Notes under the pieces: generated by a model
The model's input: the letters and a program-made list of their open reading frames with translations, nothing else
What the model was told of the DNA's origin: nothing
Databases searched by the model: none
In this document: piece after piece, positions 39,588-49,533 of the stretch
Layout: every line of letters starts with the position of its first letter
How positions within the stretch are numbered: the first letter of the stretch is position 1
Position numbers and translations under genes: made by a program
IMG/VR virus record: IMGVR_UViG_3300025117_000050
Span: 1 to 64,000 of that record
DNA: 64,000 nucleotides
From: a virus
Reading direction: 5' to 3' (one strand)

Positions 39588-40037
39588 GTGATTTTAATGA
39601 TTATTAAAACTCAAACTGCTAATGCTGTTAATGCTCAATGTTATAGGAAAGAGGAAGAGGTTGATTGGAGGTCGTGGTGTCCTAAACGTGGAGAGATTTA
39701 TTTGTGTCAGTTAGGAAATGAAGGTTTATTATATTCAGAAATTAAGGGTTATCGTCCAGTTTTAATAGCATCAAATGATATAGCGAACAGGCATAGCCCA
39801 GTAGTTACTATAATTCCATTAACTTCCAGTCAAATAAAAAATAACTTACCTGTTCATGTTAAAGTAGGGGTAGAAGAAGGGTTGCGAAATTTGAGTTTAA
39901 TTTGTTGCGAGCAGACTAAAACTGTGTCAAAAAATAGAATGTTTATAAACGGTAGTTTAGTTAAAATATGCAAATTAAGTAATGAATTAATGTGTAAAGT
40001 GGACAACGCATTAAAAATACAATTCGGATTAGTTTAA
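39588..40037 (+). CDS. mazF: MazF/PemK (NdoA-like) endoribonuclease, orphan
   Basis: KRGEIY..L..SE..GYRPVLI.SND..N..SP.V..IPLTS...LP.HV...EQ..TVSK.R...KVDNALKIQFGL; catalytic Arg and Thr present. Confidence 0.92.
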   Translation: MILMIIKTQTANAVNAQCYRKEEEVDWRSWCPKRGEIYLCQLGNEGLLYSEIKGYRPVLIASNDIANRHSPVVTIIPLTSSQIKNNLPVHVKVGVEEGLRNLSLICCEQTKTVSKNRMFINGSLVKICKLSNELMCKVDNALKIQFGLV

Positions 40038-40184: not shown

Positions 40185-41543
40185 TTGTTAGTTAAAAATC
40201 AAAAAGTTAAAGTTAAATGGAATGGAGCACATAGAAAATATTATGAAGAAAAAGGTTATCCATTTACTAATTATGGTGATGAATTAGAGATAGACATAAA
40301 AGATTTAGCACCAAAAAGTCAAAAATATGTTTTAGTTAGTTGTGATTATTGCGGTATACCATTTATGAGGAGGTATTGTAATTACAATACAAGAAAAGAA
40401 AAATACGGTAAAGATGATAAAGATTGTTGTGATGATTGCAGAGTACATAAAAGAGAAGAAACATGTTTAGATAAATATGGTTTTAAAAATGCTGTTCAAG
40501 TAGAAGAAATACAAAATAAAATAAAAGAAACTATTAAGGAAAAATATGGAGTAGAATATATATCTCAAGTAGAAGAAATTAAAAATAAAAAGAAACAAAC
40601 TTGTTTAGATAGATATGGAGTAGAATATACCTTGCAAGTTCCAGAGATTAGAGAAATGATTATAGAAACTAATATAAATAAATATGGAGTTGAAAATCCA
40701 TTTCAAAATGAAGAAATTAAAGAAAAAATCAGACAAGTCAATATGGATAAATATGGTGTAGAATATCCAATGCAATTACCTGAAATAAGAGAAAAAAGTC
40801 AAGAAACAACTTTTAAAAATCTTGGTGTTAAATATGCTATGCAATCTTATAAAACACAAGAAAAAAATAAACAATCTATTCAAGATAAATACGGATATAC
40901 AAATATTTTTCAGATACCAGAGATAAAAGAAAAAATAAAGAAAATTAATATTAAAAAATATGGAGCGGAAAATCCTTTAAATAATAAAGAAATTAGAGAA
41001 AAAGCTAATAAAACTATAAAAGATAAATATGGTGTTGATAATGTTTCACAGAATCCAGAAATACAAGCAAAAATTAGACGTTCATTTTATAAAAATGGTA
41101 CTACTCCTACTTCAATTCAACAAAGATATATTTGTTTTTTAGTAAACGGTAAATTAAATTTTCCTATTGGAAGAACAAATGCAGATATATTGATAAATAA
41201 TAATATAATTATTGAATATGATGGTGGTGGACATAATCTAAGTGTAAAAATAGGAAATATAACGCAAGATCAATTTAATAGAAAAGAAATTAAAAAATAT
41301 TATTTTTTAAAAAGTAAAGGATATAAGATTATTAGAATTGTATCTGCTAAAGATAATTTACCTAAAGAAGAGAAAAGATTAATTGATGCTATAAATATAG
41401 CAATTGATTATTTAAATCAAAATCATTCTTGGTTTGAAATAAATATTGATGATGGAAAATTAAGATGTATTTGTTATGAAAAAGATTATAATTTTGGAGA
41501 ATTAAGAAGAGGAACAAAAGAAAATTTAGCTATAAATACATAA
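40185..41543 (+). CDS. putative homing endonuclease: Zn-ribbon, ~23-aa KYGV repeats and a PD-(D/E)xK/DUF559-like C-terminus
   Basis: About nine KYGVE.P.Q..EI..K repeats; ADILI...IEYDGGGH. Confidence 0.7.
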   Translation: MLVKNQKVKVKWNGAHRKYYEEKGYPFTNYGDELEIDIKDLAPKSQKYVLVSCDYCGIPFMRRYCNYNTRKEKYGKDDKDCCDDCRVHKREETCLDKYGFKNAVQVEEIQNKIKETIKEKYGVEYISQVEEIKNKKKQTCLDRYGVEYTLQVPEIREMIIETNINKYGVENPFQNEEIKEKIRQVNMDKYGVEYPMQLPEIREKSQETTFKNLGVKYAMQSYKTQEKNKQSIQDKYGYTNIFQIPEIKEKIKKINIKKYGAENPLNNKEIREKANKTIKDKYGVDNVSQNPEIQAKIRRSFYKNGTTPTSIQQRYICFLVNGKLNFPIGRTNADILINNNIIIEYDGGGHNLSVKIGNITQDQFNRKEIKKYYFLKSKGYKIIRIVSAKDNLPKEEKRLIDAINIAIDYLNQNHSWFEINIDDGKLRCICYEKDYNFGELRRGTKENLAINT

Positions 41544-41582: not shown

Positions 41583-42176
41583 TTGATTGAATTTATTATA
41601 GGAGCATTTTTATATGCTAAATTTAAAAAAGGTTATAAGTTAAAATACATATTTAAATACCCATACATATTTGCGATAATACCACCTTTATTATGTGTTT
41701 TACTATACATATATTTAGAATATTGTGTTTTTAATCAGCAATATTGGTTTTTCCCTTATCAACATATAATAAAGACTACAACGCTTATAAGTTATGTTCC
41801 GTTGATTTATATATATAATTTATATTATAATGATATATATGAAAATGATACATTAAAATCATTTTTAACATCTCCTGCTAGTAAAACTACATTTTGTTTA
41901 GGATTAGGCTCATTTTTAAACTATATGGCAATTATCTCTAACAATATGAAAATGCCAGTATTTCCCAGTAATTGTTATTGGACTGGTTATATTAAACCTG
42001 AATTCATTAATGATGGTTTACATGTGCTAGGTGATGCTTATACTAAAGCAATCCCCTTATGCGATTGGATCGATTTTGGAATATATGTAGCTAGTCCAGG
42101 TGATATATTAATAAGATCATTTGCATTTTTAATTATTTATCATTCTATAAAAAATTCTAATAAAATGATAAAATAA
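41583..42176 (+). CDS. DUF5317-family membrane protein
   Basis: G.FLN...I.SN..KMPV...H.....TK...L.D.I.....SPGDILI. Confidence 0.75.
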   Translation: MIEFIIGAFLYAKFKKGYKLKYIFKYPYIFAIIPPLLCVLLYIYLEYCVFNQQYWFFPYQHIIKTTTLISYVPLIYIYNLYYNDIYENDTLKSFLTSPASKTTFCLGLGSFLNYMAIISNNMKMPVFPSNCYWTGYIKPEFINDGLHVLGDAYTKAIPLCDWIDFGIYVASPGDILIRSFAFLIIYHSIKNSNKMIK

Positions 42177-42208
42177 TTGTTGACACATAATTAACTCTGT
42201 GGTAATAT
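42164..42208 (+). promoter_or_regulatory. sigma-A promoter of the receptor-agrD operon, with the 18-bp element
   Basis: AATGATAAAATAATTGTT, then TTGACA(42180)-17-TAATAT(42203). Confidence 0.7.
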
Positions 42209-42244
42209 ATAAATAGAAAAAGTTGCTAAGGAGTTGATAGAGAA

Positions 42245-43039
42245 ATGATACATGATATTACAAATGCTTTGTTAAATTTTTTACTTGTAAGTGTTTTGGA
42301 GGAGTTTGTATGGTTGTTAATAACCATAATATTATTAAAAAGATTTGATTTGCTTGATAGATATAGATGGAAAGAGAGTATGCGAGAATTTTTAATACCT
42401 ATCTTACCAACTGCACTTTATATCAATTTATCTAGATATGTTTTACATATGCCTAGAATAATAATATTATTTGGATGTATATTTATATTTTATGGTTTGA
42501 CATTATATATAATAAAGAAAAATTCATTTATAGATGAAAAATTACCATATTTAAAAATATTAATGTTTGTATTTATAGGTATTCTTATTATAGGAATAAC
42601 AGAATTGATTTATATGCCAATAATTTTATATATTATACAACAACCAGTAACAATAATGAATCAAAATATTTTAATGAATTTTGCATTTTCAATACCATCT
42701 AGAATATTTCAAATATTATTAATTCTTGCATTAATTTATAAATATAATGAAATTAAATTATTCAGCAATATAATAAAAGATAAAGTATTATTAATTATTA
42801 CAGTGTTGTTTTTAAGTATTATATTGCTAATAGTATTTATTACAACAAAAATTATTCATAGTTATTGTTTAATTTTAAACTTTTCTTTATATTCACAAAT
42901 ATTAATTGGAATTAGCATAACAACAATTATAACATTAATAATATTTTTTTATCTTATTCCAATTAATTATTTAATAAATAAAATGTTTTTACTTAACAAA
43001 TCACATCAAAATATGTTTGATGATGATTATATAGATTAA
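42245..43039 (+). CDS. polytopic membrane protein, putative AIP receptor (AgrC-sensor-like, no kinase domain)
   Basis: About 7 hydrophobic segments, only a ~20-aa C-terminal tail, no H-box or GHKL motifs; directly upstream of agrD. Confidence 0.6.
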   Translation: MIHDITNALLNFLLVSVLEEFVWLLITIILLKRFDLLDRYRWKESMREFLIPILPTALYINLSRYVLHMPRIIILFGCIFIFYGLTLYIIKKNSFIDEKLPYLKILMFVFIGILIIGITELIYMPIILYIIQQPVTIMNQNILMNFAFSIPSRIFQILLILALIYKYNEIKLFSNIIKDKVLLIITVLFLSIILLIVFITTKIIHSYCLILNFSLYSQILIGISITTIITLIIFFYLIPINYLINKMFLLNKSHQNMFDDDYID

Positions 43040-43060
43040 AATAGAAAGGAGGGAAATTTC

Positions 43061-43180
43061 ATGAAAAAGTTTGCAATTATTACTTCTTTAATTGGTATTA
43101 TCGGCATTATCTGTGCAAATTGTATTAATTCTGCTTGGACATTTAACCAACCGAAAGCACCATCTATGTTAGTTAAGTAA
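43061..43180 (+). CDS. agrD: AgrD-type cyclic lactone autoinducer peptide precursor (39 aa, not in ORF track)
   Basis: SD AAGGAGG; MKKFAIITSLIGIIGIICANCINSAWTFNQPKAPSMLVK = hydrophobic leader, S-A-W-T-F core, NQPKAP follower typical of clostridial AgrD. Confidence 0.88.
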   Translation: MKKFAIITSLIGIIGIICANCINSAWTFNQPKAPSMLVK

Positions 43181-43197
43181 TTTATAACTACATAGAA

Positions 43198-43237
43198 TAT
43201 TTATAGTAGAGGATGATTGTTTTCTCTACTATAAATA
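43198..43237. terminator. hairpin terminator after agrD
   Basis: TATTTATAGTAGAG / CTCTACTATAAATA. Confidence 0.7.
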
Positions 43238-43257
43238 CAAAAAATAAATATAAATAC

Positions 43258-43286
43258 TTGTATTCTGGAGGATAGTATGGTAAAAT
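43258..43286 (+). promoter_or_regulatory. sigma-A promoter for the HTH-mazF / ORF / agrB unit
   Basis: TTGTAT-17-TAAAAT with extended TG. Confidence 0.6.
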
Positions 43287-43332
43287 AATAGATGTAATAT
43301 ATATAAAATATTAAATTGAGGAGTGATTAATA

Positions 43333-44229
43333 ATGTCAATATTATTTGGTAAGAAGAATGTATTAAAACCTACTTCTACAAATTCTATTTCTGAAATAAC
43401 AAAGAAAGAGTTAGCTTACAATATAAGAGTTGCCGTAGGTCATCGAAGTATTACTCAAGTCTGTAATATATTAAAAATGGTCGATCCAAAACCATTAGTT
43501 GACTTAATAAAAATGAATTATAATGAATTACCTGATAGACAATTACTTAGAAAAATTGCATCTGCAAGCGAAGGTAGGGTTTCTTATCAAAACCTTTATT
43601 CTGTCTGCGGTTATTCCGAATTTGATTCTGAAGAAGATCGTAGTTGGGCAAAGTGGGTTCCTGAACGTGGTAGTTGTTATATGATTGATTTAGGATGGAA
43701 TATGGATAGTGAGCAAAATTCTGTGCGTCCGGCAATAGTGATGCAAAACAACAAAGGCAATCAATACTCAGGAACAACCGTTATTATCCCTATATCTTCT
43801 CGTTCTAAAAAATTTTCTTCACAGATTCATGTATTATTAGAAAAAGAATTAGGATTTTTACGGGAATGTCAATGTTTTCCAGAACAAATTCGCTGTGTTT
43901 CAAAAAGGAGGTTCTTCTATAATTCTGTACCTTATAAAATCACTACTTTACCAGAACATAAATTATTAGAAATCAAAAACGCACTTGAGTTTGAACTAGG
44001 TTTTGAGCCTTTATATTTTGACGAAGAAAAAATATTTAAATTAATTTCTCATATTCGTTCTTTAGAAAATAATATTAAAATCAAAAAATCACATAATCTA
44101 ATTGATATATTAAATCAAAAAATGGATGATCTAAAAGAATACTGTTCAAAATATCATAAGAATCACAAGATTATCTTACAAGAATACGATAGAATCAACA
44201 ATTGCGGTTACAATGCAGTATCCATATAA
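43333..44229 (+). CDS. XRE-like HTH-MazF/PemK fusion with C-terminal helical extension
   Basis: N-terminal ELA..IR.AVG.RSI......P....LRKIA.AS...VSY..L...CGY; middle ERGSCY.IDL....SEQ..VRPAIV.QN..GN.YS....IPISS..IHV...EQIR.VSK.R. Confidence 0.85.
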   Translation: MSILFGKKNVLKPTSTNSISEITKKELAYNIRVAVGHRSITQVCNILKMVDPKPLVDLIKMNYNELPDRQLLRKIASASEGRVSYQNLYSVCGYSEFDSEEDRSWAKWVPERGSCYMIDLGWNMDSEQNSVRPAIVMQNNKGNQYSGTTVIIPISSRSKKFSSQIHVLLEKELGFLRECQCFPEQIRCVSKRRFFYNSVPYKITTLPEHKLLEIKNALEFELGFEPLYFDEEKIFKLISHIRSLENNIKIKKSHNLIDILNQKMDDLKEYCSKYHKNHKIILQEYDRINNCGYNAVSI

Positions 44230-44291
44230 AACAACAAATCCAACCAAAATAAACAAATAAAACTAAAACAAAAAAAAGGAGATCAATTAAA

Positions 44292-44633
44292 ATGATAATC
44301 TTTGATGAAAAACAATTAAAATACTTATTTAATAAATACAAAATAAGATATAAAATATTTGAAGAAACAAATATTCTACTTATAGATAGTGGTCTTGATG
44401 AGTGGTTAATCAAGTATCAACATGGAAGAGATCAACCATATTGCCTTATGCACAAAAATAAATTAAAACAAACTAAAAGGTTCCATGTGCAGAGATGGTT
44501 GTCAAATTTTTATCAATCACTTGATAGTCTATTGTCACATAAAAATATTTTTGTAGATCATTCAAGTTCAAAAAATACATATAAAAAATATAGAAATAAT
44601 AAAATAAATAATAAAAGGAGAAAAAGTTGTTAA
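44292..44633 (+). CDS. hypothetical protein overlapping the agrB start
   Basis: SD AAGGAG; overlaps the agrB start by 7 nt. Confidence 0.6.
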   Translation: MIIFDEKQLKYLFNKYKIRYKIFEETNILLIDSGLDEWLIKYQHGRDQPYCLMHKNKLKQTKRFHVQRWLSNFYQSLDSLLSHKNIFVDHSSSKNTYKKYRNNKINNKRRKSC

Positions 44634-45421
44634 AATATATAAAAAACTACATAATAACATTTCGTTATATCAAACTATTCTCATATTGGAATGCAAGATA
44701 TTTGCATAACAAACTAAAAGAAGAAAGAATTAGAGAATCACAAAACTTACATAATCCACATAAAGAAAAACATAAATATTATTATATATTGCAAATGATA
44801 ATTAAAAAATTATTTCAAATAATTAATAAAATAATTTCTTTAACTCCATTAGGAAGAAAACTATCATCGTACATAACTGAAAAATATTCACAATATAAAC
44901 AGAAAGAGAAAAAACCTAAAAAAATATACAACAGATACACCTACTATTATGGTCTTCAAATAATCATCGGAGGCATAAATAAATTCCTTCTACTAATCAT
45001 ACCAGGCTTACTATTTAACATCTTGCCGCAACTATTACTAACCACGTTATCATTTGTATCACTAAGAATATGGACTGGTGGTCTGCACTACAATTCTTAT
45101 ACCAAATGCAGCTACATATCACTATTATCCTTCACACTCACAGCACTACTATCAAAATACATCATATTAAATCAATTTATCACTATGTCAATATTTCTAT
45201 CTGTATTTATATTAATTTTAATCTATGCCCCTGTAGAACATCCAAACAGACCAATAAAAGAAAAAGAAAAAATTAAATACAAATTAATCGCATTATTTGT
45301 ATTAAGCACCTTAACTATTATCTATATGTTTACAAATAATGTTATTATCTGTAATTCTATTATATATGGGATATTATTAGCAGGTATAATTATGTTACCA
45401 ATTATAAATAAACTAAGATAA
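44627..45421 (+). CDS. agrB: AgrB accessory gene regulator B (peptide-processing membrane protease)
   Basis: LRIWTGGLH...YTKC (catalytic His/Cys) and IYAPVEHPNRP motifs. Confidence 0.93.
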   Translation: MLKYIKNYIITFRYIKLFSYWNARYLHNKLKEERIRESQNLHNPHKEKHKYYYILQMIIKKLFQIINKIISLTPLGRKLSSYITEKYSQYKQKEKKPKKIYNRYTYYYGLQIIIGGINKFLLLIIPGLLFNILPQLLLTTLSFVSLRIWTGGLHYNSYTKCSYISLLSFTLTALLSKYIILNQFITMSIFLSVFILILIYAPVEHPNRPIKEKEKIKYKLIALFVLSTLTIIYMFTNNVIICNSIIYGILLAGIIMLPIINKLR

Positions 45422-45883: not shown

Positions 45884-45912
45884 TTGACATAGCATACTAA
45901 TACATATATAAT
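45884..45912 (+). promoter_or_regulatory. consensus sigma-A promoter of the repressor operon
   Basis: TTGACA-17-TATAAT. Confidence 0.85.
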
Positions 45913-45959
45913 AATCATTAATGAGATATTATATATAAATAAAAAAGAGGTGAGTAACT

Positions 45960-47336
45960 ATGCTTAATATTAAAAATGCTATGTTGATAAAAGAATTAAA
46001 ACCACTAATAATTAAATATGGAAACAATTCAAAAATTTATAATCTTGTTCACGAATCCTTTATTAAAAAGGGTTTAACGGGTAGTAATGCAAAAAATCTA
46101 TTTACAGGTAAACTACCATTAGAATCTTTAGATATCACTTGTCAAAAAGAATTATATTTATTATTTTCTTTTACTGATAGCATGAGAAAAGCATTAAATT
46201 CATTTGATGAAATGTCTAAAGATACTTTTGGTTCAGAAGAAGAGTACTCAAAATTAAAACTAGAAAATTATTTTACTCCTATGGAAATTGAAGAGTTTAC
46301 GGATTTCGTGATAGAGAAAGAAGAAATAAGTAGATATCCTTACAGATTAAAAAACATGTTAAAAGTTGGGGAAAATCACTATATAGGCATTATATCTGCT
46401 AGAGAATTATCTTGGATAGATGCCTCCAATGACATTGTTTATGATTTCGCTGTACAGCGTGATCCCAAAATTGATATATTTGGCATGAAACGTATTAATA
46501 CTGATTTAAAGAAAATAGATGAAATGACAGAGAAGTTACTTTCTGGCAATTACTTTTCAGATGAAATTAAGTTAAATGTTAAGAATGATGGTGAAGATCA
46601 TATCGAATTCGATTCAAAAGACGGAATTTATGGTGATCTTATTATTCATTCAGGAACAATAACTTGTTTTGACGGTTATCACAGAAAAGCAGCCAATTCA
46701 AAAGTTATGAATATTAATAATGAATTGCAATTTAATTGGAAACTAGGTGTTACTAACTATCCAGAACCTAAAGCAAAAAAATTCATGATTCAAATTAACA
46801 AACAAAAACCTATTAAGATTGAACACATCAGAAATATTGATGAAACAAGAAATGAAAATGTAATTGTCAATAATATTATCAATAATTCTAATTCCGAACT
46901 TGCTGATAAGATTAAAGATTCTGATGCAGAATTAAAACATGGTGGATTAACTAAAAAATCTATATTATCTTTAGCAATAGAAGAACAATATAAGGAATTT
47001 TTAGTTACTAAAATCAATAATATTGAAATATCTAATTGGATAGTAGAATTCACAAATCATTTAATGGGATTATATACTAACGAATTTTTATTTAATGTAG
47101 ACAAAACTAAAAAAATAAGTTATATTAATCATAAGAATATGTTTATGGGATATATCGCACTTTCAAGAAAATTGTATAAGCAAGATGATTGGAAAAATAA
47201 AACTAAAAAAATAATGGAAAGCGTTGATTTTAGCATTGATAATGATATTTGGAAAAGTATTAAAATCAATGAAGATAATTTAAATAAAACATCAAAGAAT
47301 GAATTATATAATATATTTATTAAAAAGCAGGTGTAA
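45960..47336 (+). CDS. YopQ/SroE-like DndB/ParB-fold protein
   Basis: 458 aa; VQR and CFDGYHR (DGQHR-type) motifs, FMIQINKQKP; adjacent to a YopR-like gene as in SPbeta. Confidence 0.7.
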   Translation: MLNIKNAMLIKELKPLIIKYGNNSKIYNLVHESFIKKGLTGSNAKNLFTGKLPLESLDITCQKELYLLFSFTDSMRKALNSFDEMSKDTFGSEEEYSKLKLENYFTPMEIEEFTDFVIEKEEISRYPYRLKNMLKVGENHYIGIISARELSWIDASNDIVYDFAVQRDPKIDIFGMKRINTDLKKIDEMTEKLLSGNYFSDEIKLNVKNDGEDHIEFDSKDGIYGDLIIHSGTITCFDGYHRKAANSKVMNINNELQFNWKLGVTNYPEPKAKKFMIQINKQKPIKIEHIRNIDETRNENVIVNNIINNSNSELADKIKDSDAELKHGGLTKKSILSLAIEEQYKEFLVTKINNIEISNWIVEFTNHLMGLYTNEFLFNVDKTKKISYINHKNMFMGYIALSRKLYKQDDWKNKTKKIMESVDFSIDNDIWKSIKINEDNLNKTSKNELYNIFIKKQV

Positions 47337-47341
47337 AATAA

Positions 47342-48412
47342 ATGGTAAAACATAGAAACGGGAGAAAAAATTTAGCAGAAAGAGTGTTTAAGCATGATAG
47401 AGATGTTAAAGAAGAATTCTTAAAATCATTGAAACCCTCAACTGCTAATACTGTAAGAAGTATACTTTTTAAGGTAGATGAATATGAAGAATTAATTGGG
47501 AAAAGTATATATGATTTTAATTTAGATGATCGTGATGATTTTATTATATCTATGTTCCCTAATAAAAGTAAAGGTGTTATTAATACAACTAGATCATATC
47601 TGGTAGGATATATTAATTATTGTATTGACAATAACCTTGTTAGACATATGGAAAATAGATTTAGTTTAATCTCTAAAGATGATATAGATAATTATGTCAA
47701 TGATATGGCTATGCAAATGAAGTACCTGTCGAAGGAAGAAATTAAAGAAGCACAAAGTAAATTGGTTAATAATTGTGATAAATTAATTTTGCAATTAGTT
47801 CCTTTATCAGCCAGAGGTCGCACCGAAAAGGATAATACTAATGAAGAATTAATAAATTTAAGAGTGCAAGATGCTGTAGAATCTTACGAAAAAGGCAATC
47901 TAAAACTTTGGAATAATGATGGAGATTTTAGGTATATAAAAATTGATGATGAAACAATAGAATTATTAAAGAAAACTATAAATGATGATAAATATATCAT
48001 TAATAATGGAAGTGAATATAGTCGTAAAAGACATGATAAAAAACTTGGCAGAGGCATGGGAGAAAAAAGTTTCCCTTTAAATGATACTGGCTATGTTTTT
48101 AGAACTGCTGGCAAGAATAAAAGGGGTAAAGTTAAATCCAATTATTTTAATTCTAAAATTAATATAATAAAAGATTGGGTGGAGAATCCATTTATTAACA
48201 TAACTAATTTACACGCATCAGGTATGATTGATTATGTCATCCAATTAGAAAATGAAAAAGGAGAAGAATTAGATAATAACGACTATATAGATGTTTGTGA
48301 AAAATATTTATTTGGTAAACCTAGAATTTTGCCCAATGGTGAAAATGATTGGAGTATGTCAATATCAAAATTAAAGACAATGGTAAAAGATTATATTAAT
48401 ATTAAATCATAA
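47342..48412 (+). CDS. MrpR/YopR (SroF)-like tyrosine-recombinase-fold master repressor
   Basis: E..IGKSIYDF core-binding N-domain; DKLIL.L....EELINL and NL.ASGMI motifs; canonical HxxR not evident. Confidence 0.72.
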   Translation: MVKHRNGRKNLAERVFKHDRDVKEEFLKSLKPSTANTVRSILFKVDEYEELIGKSIYDFNLDDRDDFIISMFPNKSKGVINTTRSYLVGYINYCIDNNLVRHMENRFSLISKDDIDNYVNDMAMQMKYLSKEEIKEAQSKLVNNCDKLILQLVPLSARGRTEKDNTNEELINLRVQDAVESYEKGNLKLWNNDGDFRYIKIDDETIELLKKTINDDKYIINNGSEYSRKRHDKKLGRGMGEKSFPLNDTGYVFRTAGKNKRGKVKSNYFNSKINIIKDWVENPFINITNLHASGMIDYVIQLENEKGEELDNNDYIDVCEKYLFGKPRILPNGENDWSMSISKLKTMVKDYINIKS

Positions 48413-48424
48413 GGATGTGAAAAA

Positions 48425-49279
48425 ATGGCGAAAAATAGTATTAACTTATCTGACTATGAAGATATAGAAGTTTATAATATGGTTAGGTTTGGAATTATAG
48501 GTAGATTTCCTAATAATTTTTGGGGTGGATTAGATACTTATAAAACTGCAAAAGACCTGACTAGATATATGTTTGAAAATATTCTTGAATGGAGTATAGA
48601 AGATATTAAGCATAAGGTAACAGCAGATATTTTTTATGAAAATAAACTTGGTAATATGCTAAAAACACTTTTTGATAATAATTTATTAGATGCATTGCTT
48701 AACGCATACCCAGAATTAGCAGATTGGGTAGAAGAAAAAAAGAATAAAATTATTATCGAAAAAGAACCAAGAGAAAAATATACAGATGAAGAGTTAATAG
48801 AAAATTTACAGCAAAAATATAAGGAATTAAATAGAACACCTTATATAAGAGAAATGTCTGAACCAGAAGGAAATGTTTATATATCAAGATTTGGTAGTTG
48901 GAGTAATGCTTTAATTCTTGCTGAGTTAATTGAGGACATATGTGTAGATGTAGATAATTCAGAAGAAGCAATTAATAAAGCGCAAAGGGAAATTAAAGAT
49001 TTTGCGTATAAAGTAGAAAGATTACCAACTAAAAAAGAAGTAGATAATTTATTTTCTCCTGGAGAATTAATATCATATTTCGGTTCTTTAAAAGGACTTT
49101 ATGATTATTTAAGTGAAGGTTATACAGAAGAAGAATTAATAAATATATTAATTGATAAAAGAAATAAATTAGGGAGAAATCCAATAAATAAGGATATAAA
49201 ATTCCCAAGACCAATTATCTTTATTGATAAATTCAATAGTTGGGAGAATGCCTTAAAAGAAGCAAGATTAGATGAATAA
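48425..49279 (+). CDS. DUF4046-like domain plus homing-endonuclease-associated repeats (putative DNA-binding protein)
   Basis: RFPNNFW..RYMFE.ILEW..NAYP; repeats YT.EELI..L......L.R.P....F.SW.NAL..A. Confidence 0.65.
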   Translation: MAKNSINLSDYEDIEVYNMVRFGIIGRFPNNFWGGLDTYKTAKDLTRYMFENILEWSIEDIKHKVTADIFYENKLGNMLKTLFDNNLLDALLNAYPELADWVEEKKNKIIIEKEPREKYTDEELIENLQQKYKELNRTPYIREMSEPEGNVYISRFGSWSNALILAELIEDICVDVDNSEEAINKAQREIKDFAYKVERLPTKKEVDNLFSPGELISYFGSLKGLYDYLSEGYTEEELINILIDKRNKLGRNPINKDIKFPRPIIFIDKFNSWENALKEARLDE

Positions 49280-49300
49280 TTTAATCTTGCTTCTTTTATT
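49258..49300. terminator. terminator closing the repressor operon (possibly bidirectional)
   Basis: AGAAGCAAGATTA / TAATCTTGCTTCT followed by a T-run. Confidence 0.7.
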
Positions 49301-49533
49301 TATGTCAAACCCTTAATCCATTTTTCAGCAGCTAAACAGCATCCTTCAAAACTATTGAATTTAATATCTTCATTCAAAGAAATATAAATAATATCGTTAT
49401 CACGATCTATCTGAAAGTGATAGTAATATGTATCAGGCATATAATAAATATACGCTTTACATCCTTTTGCTCATCTTGCTATGCTGACCCACGTAGGGTA
49501 TACTTTACGCTTTAATATTCTTTTAAATTTCAT
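49300..49533 (-). pseudogene. minus-strand ORF with an in-frame TGA at codon 21
   Basis: SD AAGGAAG; MKFKRILKRKVYPTWVSIAR*AKGCKAY...KWIKGLT. Confidence 0.5.

Follow-up and report, generated by a model that had tools for sequence, protein, structure and literature searches.

The stretch considered here, called the window throughout, is the first 64 kb (64,000 nucleotides) of the 96.7-kb phage genome in IMG/VR record IMGVR_UViG_3300025117_000050. The genome has 25% G+C and its + strand carries nearly all the genes. The window contains a peptide-signalling module of the Agr type, running from a DUF5317 membrane-protein gene through a gene for a multi-pass membrane protein of 264 amino acids, agrD, a MazF-fusion gene, and orf113 to agrB, with an operon of repressor genes after it. 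The subject is the placement in these genes of the pentamer TACAT and its extension TACATA, which as RNA is the cut site of EndoA-type MazF endoribonucleases. A first-pass annotation had proposed that DUF5317, agrB, and the membrane-protein gene, which it called the receptor, are loaded with UACAU, that the MazF fusion is free of it, and that active MazF would shut down signal production or sensing once lysogeny is chosen. All of the + strand TACAT it listed are present, at 41646, 41664, 41706, 41849, 41888, 42019, 42249, 42444, 43189, 44576, 44648, 44748, 44870, 45113, and 45158. A motif-specific and sense-strand-specific signal does exist, consisting of a concentration of sites in DUF5317, the retention of one site in the spacer after agrD, and a near-total avoidance by the repressor operon. 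The appearance of signal genes loaded with sites is largely compositional.

The layout is given in Table 1. The cassette order of DUF5317, membrane gene, agrD, MazF fusion, orf113, agrB, yopQ-like gene, and MrpR-like gene is kept in about 10 metagenomic or viral contigs and in one fragment of a Clostridium metagenome-assembled genome, the latter recovered by a scan of genome contigs; individual loci are designated below by L numbers where they need to be told apart. Orthologs of agrD are found in 9 further loci, all with a conserved NQPK(A/S)PSML tail. The module DNA (41583-45421) has no blastn match among the GenBank phages, the DUF5317 protein has no tblastn match among them, and a single-sequence search of viral contigs with agrB found nothing. 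The TTG start of agrB is plausible because the N-terminus is conserved among orthologs. The 264-amino-acid membrane protein has no family match in Pfam or PHROG. The clusters of the Atlas nearest to the DUF5317 protein are themselves DUF5317 and mostly viral, and its AlphaFold model, with a predicted local distance difference test (pLDDT) score of 43, is too poor to use. The N-terminus of the fusion protein had been called a helix-turn-helix; Pfam matches nothing in the first 110 residues at E values as high as 1, and we drop that label.

Table 1. Features of the signalling module and repressor operon, in window coordinates unless a locus is named
Feature	Position	Strand	Basis or detail
Stand-alone MazF/PemK toxin gene (mazF1)	39588..40037	+	Pfam PF02452, E 4.9e-23, profile positions 1-109 of 109
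DUF7487 gene	40185-41543		Pfam profile search
DUF5317 membrane-protein gene	41583..42176	+	Pfam PF17248, E 9.2e-13, above curated cut-off
264-amino-acid multi-pass membrane-protein gene (first-pass 'receptor')	42245..43039	+	Family-less
AgrD-like 39-amino-acid propeptide gene (agrD)	43061..43180	+	Open reading frame list
UACAUA after the agrD stop	43189..43194	+	Unpaired spacer ahead of hairpin
16-bp stem-loop after agrD	43198..43237	+	Fold energy
agrD stop/UACAUA/hairpin arrangement	43189-43237 (window); L001 7638; L015 1504; L016 1670
MazF-fusion gene, 298 amino acids, MazF/PemK domain at residues 111-219	43333..44229	+	PF02452, E 3.4e-17, profile positions 1-106 of 109
orf113, unknown function	44292..44633	+	Open reading frame list
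agrB	44627..45421	+	Pfam PF04647, E 9.1e-37, profile positions 3-182 of 185
Sigma-70-type promoter of the repressor operon, perfect TTGACA-17-TATAAT	45884..45912	+
Repressor operon: YopQ-like 458-amino-acid gene, MrpR/YopR-like gene, 284-amino-acid gene	45960..49279	+
Terminator closing the three-gene repressor operon	49254-49298

To ask how many sites a gene should carry, we used nulls that hold the amino-acid sequence fixed and resample synonymous codons, applied to the window and to about 10 orthologous phage contigs. There are three: one draws on genome codon usage, one shuffles synonymous codons within the gene, and one is codon-pair aware and sampled by a forward-backward procedure, reproducing the genome-wide TACAT total at 155.8 expected against 156 observed. 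Expected ranges for the window are those of the genome-usage and codon-pair models, and the within-gene shuffle is reported separately. A k-mer scan additionally scored all pentamers and hexamers alike, with one gene per deep lineage. Over the whole window and both strands there are 309 TACAT, against 301 +/- 18 in shuffles, an unremarkable total. Genome-wide, 27 of the 73 Tyr codons that precede ATA (37%) are TAC, compared to about 10% in other contexts, and TATATA is avoided.

One of the two stronger signals is in the repressor operon. Its 458-amino-acid protein matches phi3T yopQ with 27% identity (E = 1e-21), and the second gene carries the MrpR/YopR N-terminal domain PF22822, so that homologues of yopQ and yopR (sroE and sroF) lie adjacent to each other and downstream of a communication module, in the gene order of phi3T, as expected of an SPbeta-type repressor operon. 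The operon has zero sense-strand TACAT, and the + strand of the 96.7-kb genome has no longer interval without the pentamer than the one around it, 45901-49458. Counted over the lineages, the operon has 2 TACAT for 16.5 expected, which places TACAT lowest of 502 pentamers there, and the deficit survives the within-gene shuffle, which keeps the codon counts of each gene (p = 0.0002). The first two genes both contribute, the orthologs of the yopQ-like gene totalling 1 where 9.7-11.4 are expected and those of the MrpR-like gene 2 where 7.2-8.9 are. Avoidance extends to all three reading frames (1/29, 0/7, and 1/28). In five lineages the 458-amino-acid protein has only 34-59% amino-acid identity with synonymous sites near saturation, and the zero counts are therefore close to independent.

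The site that bounds the empty interval, a TACATA at 45901, is in the spacer of the operon promoter and is not transcribed. TACATA is found at or beside the -10 box of this promoter in 7 of the 7 lineages examined (L002, L003, L005, and L011 among them), upstream of the box in the window type and 2-4 nt downstream of it, approximately at the transcription start, in four others. In L011 it forms the palindrome ATGTA-T-TACAT. From its position the promoter TACATA could be an operator, which leaves room for a role of the motif at the DNA level.

The product of the third operon gene (48425-49279) has a DUF4046 domain and three HNH repeats of the homing-endonuclease-associated kind (PF18780). L004 is the one fetched locus with a homolog, most of the loci stopping short of that position.

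The site best conserved in the module is not in a coding sequence. UACAUA occurs 5-13 nt past the agrD stop in 9 of 11 lineages, being missing in L003 and L012, and the distant L011/L015 and L016 keep it with flanks so diverged that the hexamer alone is common with the window. After it comes a stem-loop, which in the window has a folding energy of -18.7 to -23.3 kcal/mol (z = -5.4 to -6.8) and is followed by an A-rich tail without a U tract. An equivalent hairpin of 13-18 bp is predicted in 11 of 11 lineages (-18 to -26 kcal/mol, z = -3.8 to -7.8), made from at least 4 different stem sequences. The stems are out of register between groups, so an RNAalifold consensus fold of the region after agrD gave no structure, and each sequence was folded singly instead. 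In most lineages the spacer between the agrD stop and the hairpin, where the UACAUA is, is predicted to be unpaired; in L001 and L006 it has weak local pairings of 4 bp. Between the hairpin and the MazF-fusion gene comes a promoter-like element, which is conserved in both lineages compared (the window and L001). The hairpin is therefore the probable end of the receptor-agrD transcript, from which a cut at 43189 would remove it.

Among the genes that the first-pass annotation took to be loaded, DUF5317 is the only one with an excess of sites. In the window it has 6 TACAT where 2.1-2.9 are expected, with p = 0.006 for independent codons and 0.031-0.034 in the codon-pair-aware model, and the within-gene shuffle expects 2.8. 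Three of the 6 are TACATA, at codons 22, 28, and 42, all of them the codon pair TAC-ATA. The family total across orthologs is 44 TACAT, with 17-24 expected. With one gene taken per deep lineage, TACATA is the most enriched of 205 hexamers in the gene (18, 5.7 expected), and the overlapping ACATA, ATACA, and TACAT are all among the top four pentamers. Shared descent inflates such totals, and when aligned positions are counted once over five lineages, the excess is 15 to 9.6 for TACAT (p = 0.01) and 12 to 5.2 for TACATA (p < 0.001). Sites turn over between clades, 16 aligned positions being occupied in at least one ortholog, and a variable loop keeps AAATACATAA in two clades in two different reading frames. 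The reverse complement of the motif is not enriched, so the signal is strand-specific. We conclude that the DUF5317 excess is probably real and limited to part of the phage group.

The start of one DUF5317 ortholog, at 6001 in L001, is unusual. There is no ATG, GTG, or TTG at the conserved N-terminus and the frame begins CTG ATT directly after the TGA of the upstream gene, which suggests a rare start codon or translational coupling.

For the other genes of the module the counts are those expected. The gene agrB, said to be loaded, has 5 TACAT in the window with 4.3-5.0 expected (p about 0.45-0.6; 5.5 by the within-gene shuffle), and its family has 23 with 22-27 expected. Four of the 5 sites are TACATA and 4 of the 5 are TAC-ATx, and the first-pass annotation had several of the agrB sites depend on TAC as a rare Tyr codon. 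That argument fails because TAC is preferred before ATA genome-wide and because agrB codon usage is atypically C-rich for a 25% G+C phage, TAC being 37% of its Tyr codons (12% in the genome) and CAC 32% of its His codons. Broken down by frame, 17/36, 4/17, and 2/33 contexts in the agrB family carry TACAT where the genome rates are 20%, 48%, and 29%, so the family gains frame-0 (Tyr-Ile) sites and loses those in frames 1 and 2. This pattern is what local C-richness would give, the explanation that the first-pass annotation had itself named as contrary to its proposal. The site at 44576, described as just upstream of agrB, is where it was said to be and belongs to the coding region of orf113. 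In 6 of 8 lineages a TACATA stands 23-51 nt ahead of the start of agrB, and the agrB ribosome-binding site is bracketed by TACATA in most lineages.

The membrane-protein gene likewise has its expected number of sites, with 2 in the window (42249 and 42444) for 2.0-2.4 expected, which is not significant, and 17 in ten orthologs for 17-22 expected. Its site at codons 2-3 is common to L002 and L008 only. The MazF-fusion gene of the window does lack TACAT throughout, as the first-pass annotation had said, and 0.8 are expected, so the zero is not significant. The counts in agrB, the membrane gene, and the fusion gene are thus a by-product of composition, with no loading by selection; they follow from Tyr-Ile, Leu/Ile/Val-His, and x-Thr-Phe/Leu/Tyr contexts, together with the genome-wide TAC-ATA preference and the C-rich codons of agrB. 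Of the checks that had been suggested, codon shuffling, under each of the nulls, and site density in 8-10 orthologs return this answer for these three genes, and DUF5317 is above expectation in the window and in its ortholog total. In the k-mer scan TACAT and TACATA are unremarkable in agrB, in the membrane gene, and in both MazF genes. The orf113 family has 10 TACAT for 8-9 expected. The agrD gene of the window has none and its family 0 for 1.9-2.2 expected. The mazF1 gene also has none in the window, and its 5 orthologs have 1 for 3.5-3.9 expected (p = 0.05-0.08). We considered whether toxin genes avoid their own cut site and rejected this for the fusion gene (11 found, 12 expected); for mazF1 the tendency is weak (1 found, 3.6 expected).

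What enzyme might read these sites is the next point of interest. Among solved structures, the nearest relatives of either phage MazF domain are B. subtilis EndoA and S. aureus MazF (E = 1e-14 to 1e-16), mazF1 aligning to both of them at E about 1e-16 and the fusion best to S. aureus MazF at E = 1.5e-14. In alignment to these two enzymes, Glu20, Arg25, Pro26, Asn36, and Arg85 (EndoA numbering) are kept in the phage domains, and mazF1 has a 2-residue insertion in the beta1-beta2 loop. Of these, Glu20 and Pro26, which lie in that loop as Gly18 does, and Asn36 and Arg85 are contacts to the RNA. Arg25 and Thr48 are catalytic in the EndoA type of MazF (PMC8634880, citing Simanshu 2013). U^ACAUA is cut by the MazF of B. 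subtilis, S. aureus, and Listeria (bioRxiv 10.64898/2026.08.06.743204), and PMC8634880 lists the C. difficile enzyme as one that cuts UACAU. The UACAU(A) specificity of the phage domains is a reasonable guess and no more than that, since a relative with the same conserved residues cuts a different hexamer, as described below. As a candidate, the MazF of the host is just as good.

The reading towards which we lean, and which we consider somewhat probable, is that an EndoA-type MazF endoribonuclease cutting U^ACAU(A), from either a phage MazF domain or the Clostridium host, shapes the module, with the operon spared and any feedback passing through the site 3' of agrD and not through agrB. Active MazF would then leave the repressor-operon mRNA intact, cut the DUF5317 mRNA several times, and deprive the receptor-agrD mRNA of its protective 3' hairpin; the agrB mRNA would be cut no more than those of about half of the phage genes, since 75 of the 147 genes in the genome bear TACAT. 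The relevance of a UACAU-specific RNase, as the first-pass annotation had it, gains support from the operon depletion, the DUF5317 enrichment, and the agrD 3' site, with targets that differ from those it proposed. It may be that the placement of UACAU(A) goes so far as to set the outcome of MazF activity in SPbeta-like Clostridium phages, such that the operon escapes, the DUF5317 and receptor-agrD mRNAs are hit, the decision tilts to lysogeny, and peptide signalling goes off, but this we put forward tentatively and with considerable doubt.

A number of observations weigh against MazF as the agent. Both phage domains are only about 35-40% identical to EndoA. At the position of Thr48, mazF1 has Thr and the fusion protein Ser, and at that of Gly18 mazF1 has Tyr and the fusion Asp. 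Gly18 contacts RNA in EndoA, and the G18A change abolished the activity of the MazF of Ca. Desulforudis audaxviator (MazF-Da) (PMC8634880). UACAAA, not UACAUA, is the cut site of a related MazF in which the same residues are conserved (PMC8634880). The MazF fusion does not avoid the motif, since its 10 orthologs carry 11 TACAT for 10-12 expected. DUF5317 ranks 2 of 147-155 genes for excess, its single-genome p does not survive correction over about 150 genes, and a level of that kind is what chance would give the best gene among so many. Taking nine DUF5317 orthologs as independent of one another, an over-conservative assumption, puts the distinct positions of TACAT at 16 for 14 expected (p = 0.24) and those of TACATA at 12 for 8.4 (p = 0.03). 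The excess is concentrated in three related clades, the distant L011, L012, and L016 having 4, 0, and 1 sites, and there are only 12 gene families from which to gauge variation between families. In the sro genes of phi3T (its repressor operon), a codon-aware count finds 0 TACATA for 2.5 expected, which is marginal at p = 0.05, and TACAT is not depleted.

Several of these points would also suit a module on which no selection acts, all counts being products of amino-acid composition, habits of codon and codon-pair use, the common ancestry of orthologs, and chance in a genome with many genes. The window p for DUF5317 is just 0.006-0.03 at rank 2 of about 150, the sites at codons 22, 28, and 42 (half of those in the gene) sit in a 5' stretch that is about 93% nucleotide-identical between clades, other k-mers, owing to rare codons that are conserved, attain z of 5-8 in other families, and the count over nine independent orthologs is the unimpressive one just given. 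We nevertheless regard the absence of selection as unlikely, considering that the same motif, specified in advance, stands at the end of the range among about 500 pentamers in one gene set and, in the opposite direction, among about 200 hexamers in another, that the operon avoids it in three frames among lineages so far apart in protein identity, and that the non-coding UACAUA after agrD is kept despite differing flanks. The first-pass version, with agrB, the receptor, and DUF5317 loaded by selection, the fusion cleared, and MazF stopping signal production or sensing after the choice of lysogeny, fares worse, and we hold it to be very improbable: ortholog counts at expectation for agrB, receptor, and fusion, the compositional origin of the agrB TAC codons, the carriage of TACAT by half the genes of the genome, which makes carriage nothing special, and the lack of an established signalling role for DUF5317 all speak against it. 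It can draw on the UACAUA that are present (4 in agrB, 1 in the receptor gene, and 3 in DUF5317), on the bracketing of the agrB ribosome-binding site, on the conserved agrD 3' site, and on the link between MazF and lysogeny in phi3T (PMC10769878).

It might also be that TACATA is selected and is not a MazF cut site, serving the MrpR-like repressor or the fusion protein as an operator or promoter element, acting as the target of another RNase or RNA-binding protein, or causing a translational pause in DUF5317. Strand specificity speaks against a DNA element, and an operator would hardly explain avoidance over 3.3 kb of coding sequence; the DUF5317 sites, of which three do form spaced repeats within the first 130 nt, are spread along the gene and their positions turn over; and at the agrD 3' site deep lineages have just the hexamer core in common, the motif being what the nearest enzymes of known specificity cut. 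What such a role would account for is the TACATA at the -10 box in all 7 lineages, untranscribed or at the extreme 5' end, with the L011 palindrome, and the missing Gly18 equivalent in the phage MazF domains. On balance we think a role other than MazF cleavage decidedly unlikely as the source of the whole pattern.

Set against known systems, the module resembles the arbitrium-MazF axis of phi3T and SPbeta, in that an SPbeta-like phage has a peptide-signalling module directly upstream of yopQ/yopR-type repressor genes and an EndoA-type MazF appears to be implicated. It differs in its signal, which is AimR/AimP in those phages and is of the Agr type here, with agrB, agrD, and a membrane protein without a kinase, and in having MazF domains encoded by the phage, when in the phi3T/SPbeta system MazF is encoded by the host. 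In the phi3T work, host MazF activity drives lysogeny (PMC10769878), and UACAU was counted per gene with phage transcripts found to be site-rich (PMC10769878; bioRxiv 10.1101/2023.04.27.537455); the text consulted mentions neither an avoidance of the motif by the repressor operon nor a site conserved 3' in the signal gene. In phi3T itself (63703-82761, L017), yopP-yopR hold 7 TACAT of which 0 are TACATA, while elsewhere in the 19-kb locus 21 of 30 are.

Bacterial MazF regulons defined by the cut site U^ACAUA have been described in B. subtilis, L. monocytogenes, and S. aureus, and in species that encode MazF the rRNA genes avoid the site (bioRxiv 10.64898/2026.08.06.743204; PMC7470975). The motif here is the same, and here as there the presence or absence of a site would decide which transcripts are hit. 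Those regulons were measured by transcriptomics and reporters, and the present pattern is known from sequence statistics. A further difference is that this phage group avoids the pentamer as well as the hexamer in its repressor operon.

The C. difficile phage phiCDHM1 reportedly has agrB, agrD, and the histidine kinase gene agrC with no MazF, and no RNase-site analysis is said to have been made for it. As a phage of a clostridial host with both agrB and agrD, it is like the phage of the window (PMC3901668). Among GenBank phages no C. difficile phage was matched by tblastn with the DUF5317 and 458-amino-acid proteins or by blastn with the module DNA.

If the proposed MazF scheme were true it would supply a concrete mechanism by which MazF promotes lysogeny in arbitrium-like systems. 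In phi3T MazF favours lysogeny, and if the pattern described here is functional it names candidates for the RNAs through which it does so, namely a site-free repressor operon, a site-rich membrane-protein gene, and a single conserved site that would detach the 3' hairpin from the signal-peptide mRNA. It would also offer a computational route to guessing the specificity of uncharacterised phage MazF toxins. A caution comes with it, that at 25% G+C an AT-rich pentamer can seem strikingly frequent in Tyr/Ile-rich membrane genes when its raw counts are mostly those expected.

The module is also a mosaic. The MazF fusion of the window is 81-85% identical to those of L005, L006, and L008, and its yopQ-like gene is 81% identical to those of L001 and L006, yet 34-37% to those of L002, L003, L005, and L011. 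The gene between mazF1 and DUF5317 varies by lineage, being either DUF7487 or an unrelated gene of about 650 amino acids, and agrB of the window has a 90-nt insertion (codons ~32-61) that is absent from L001.

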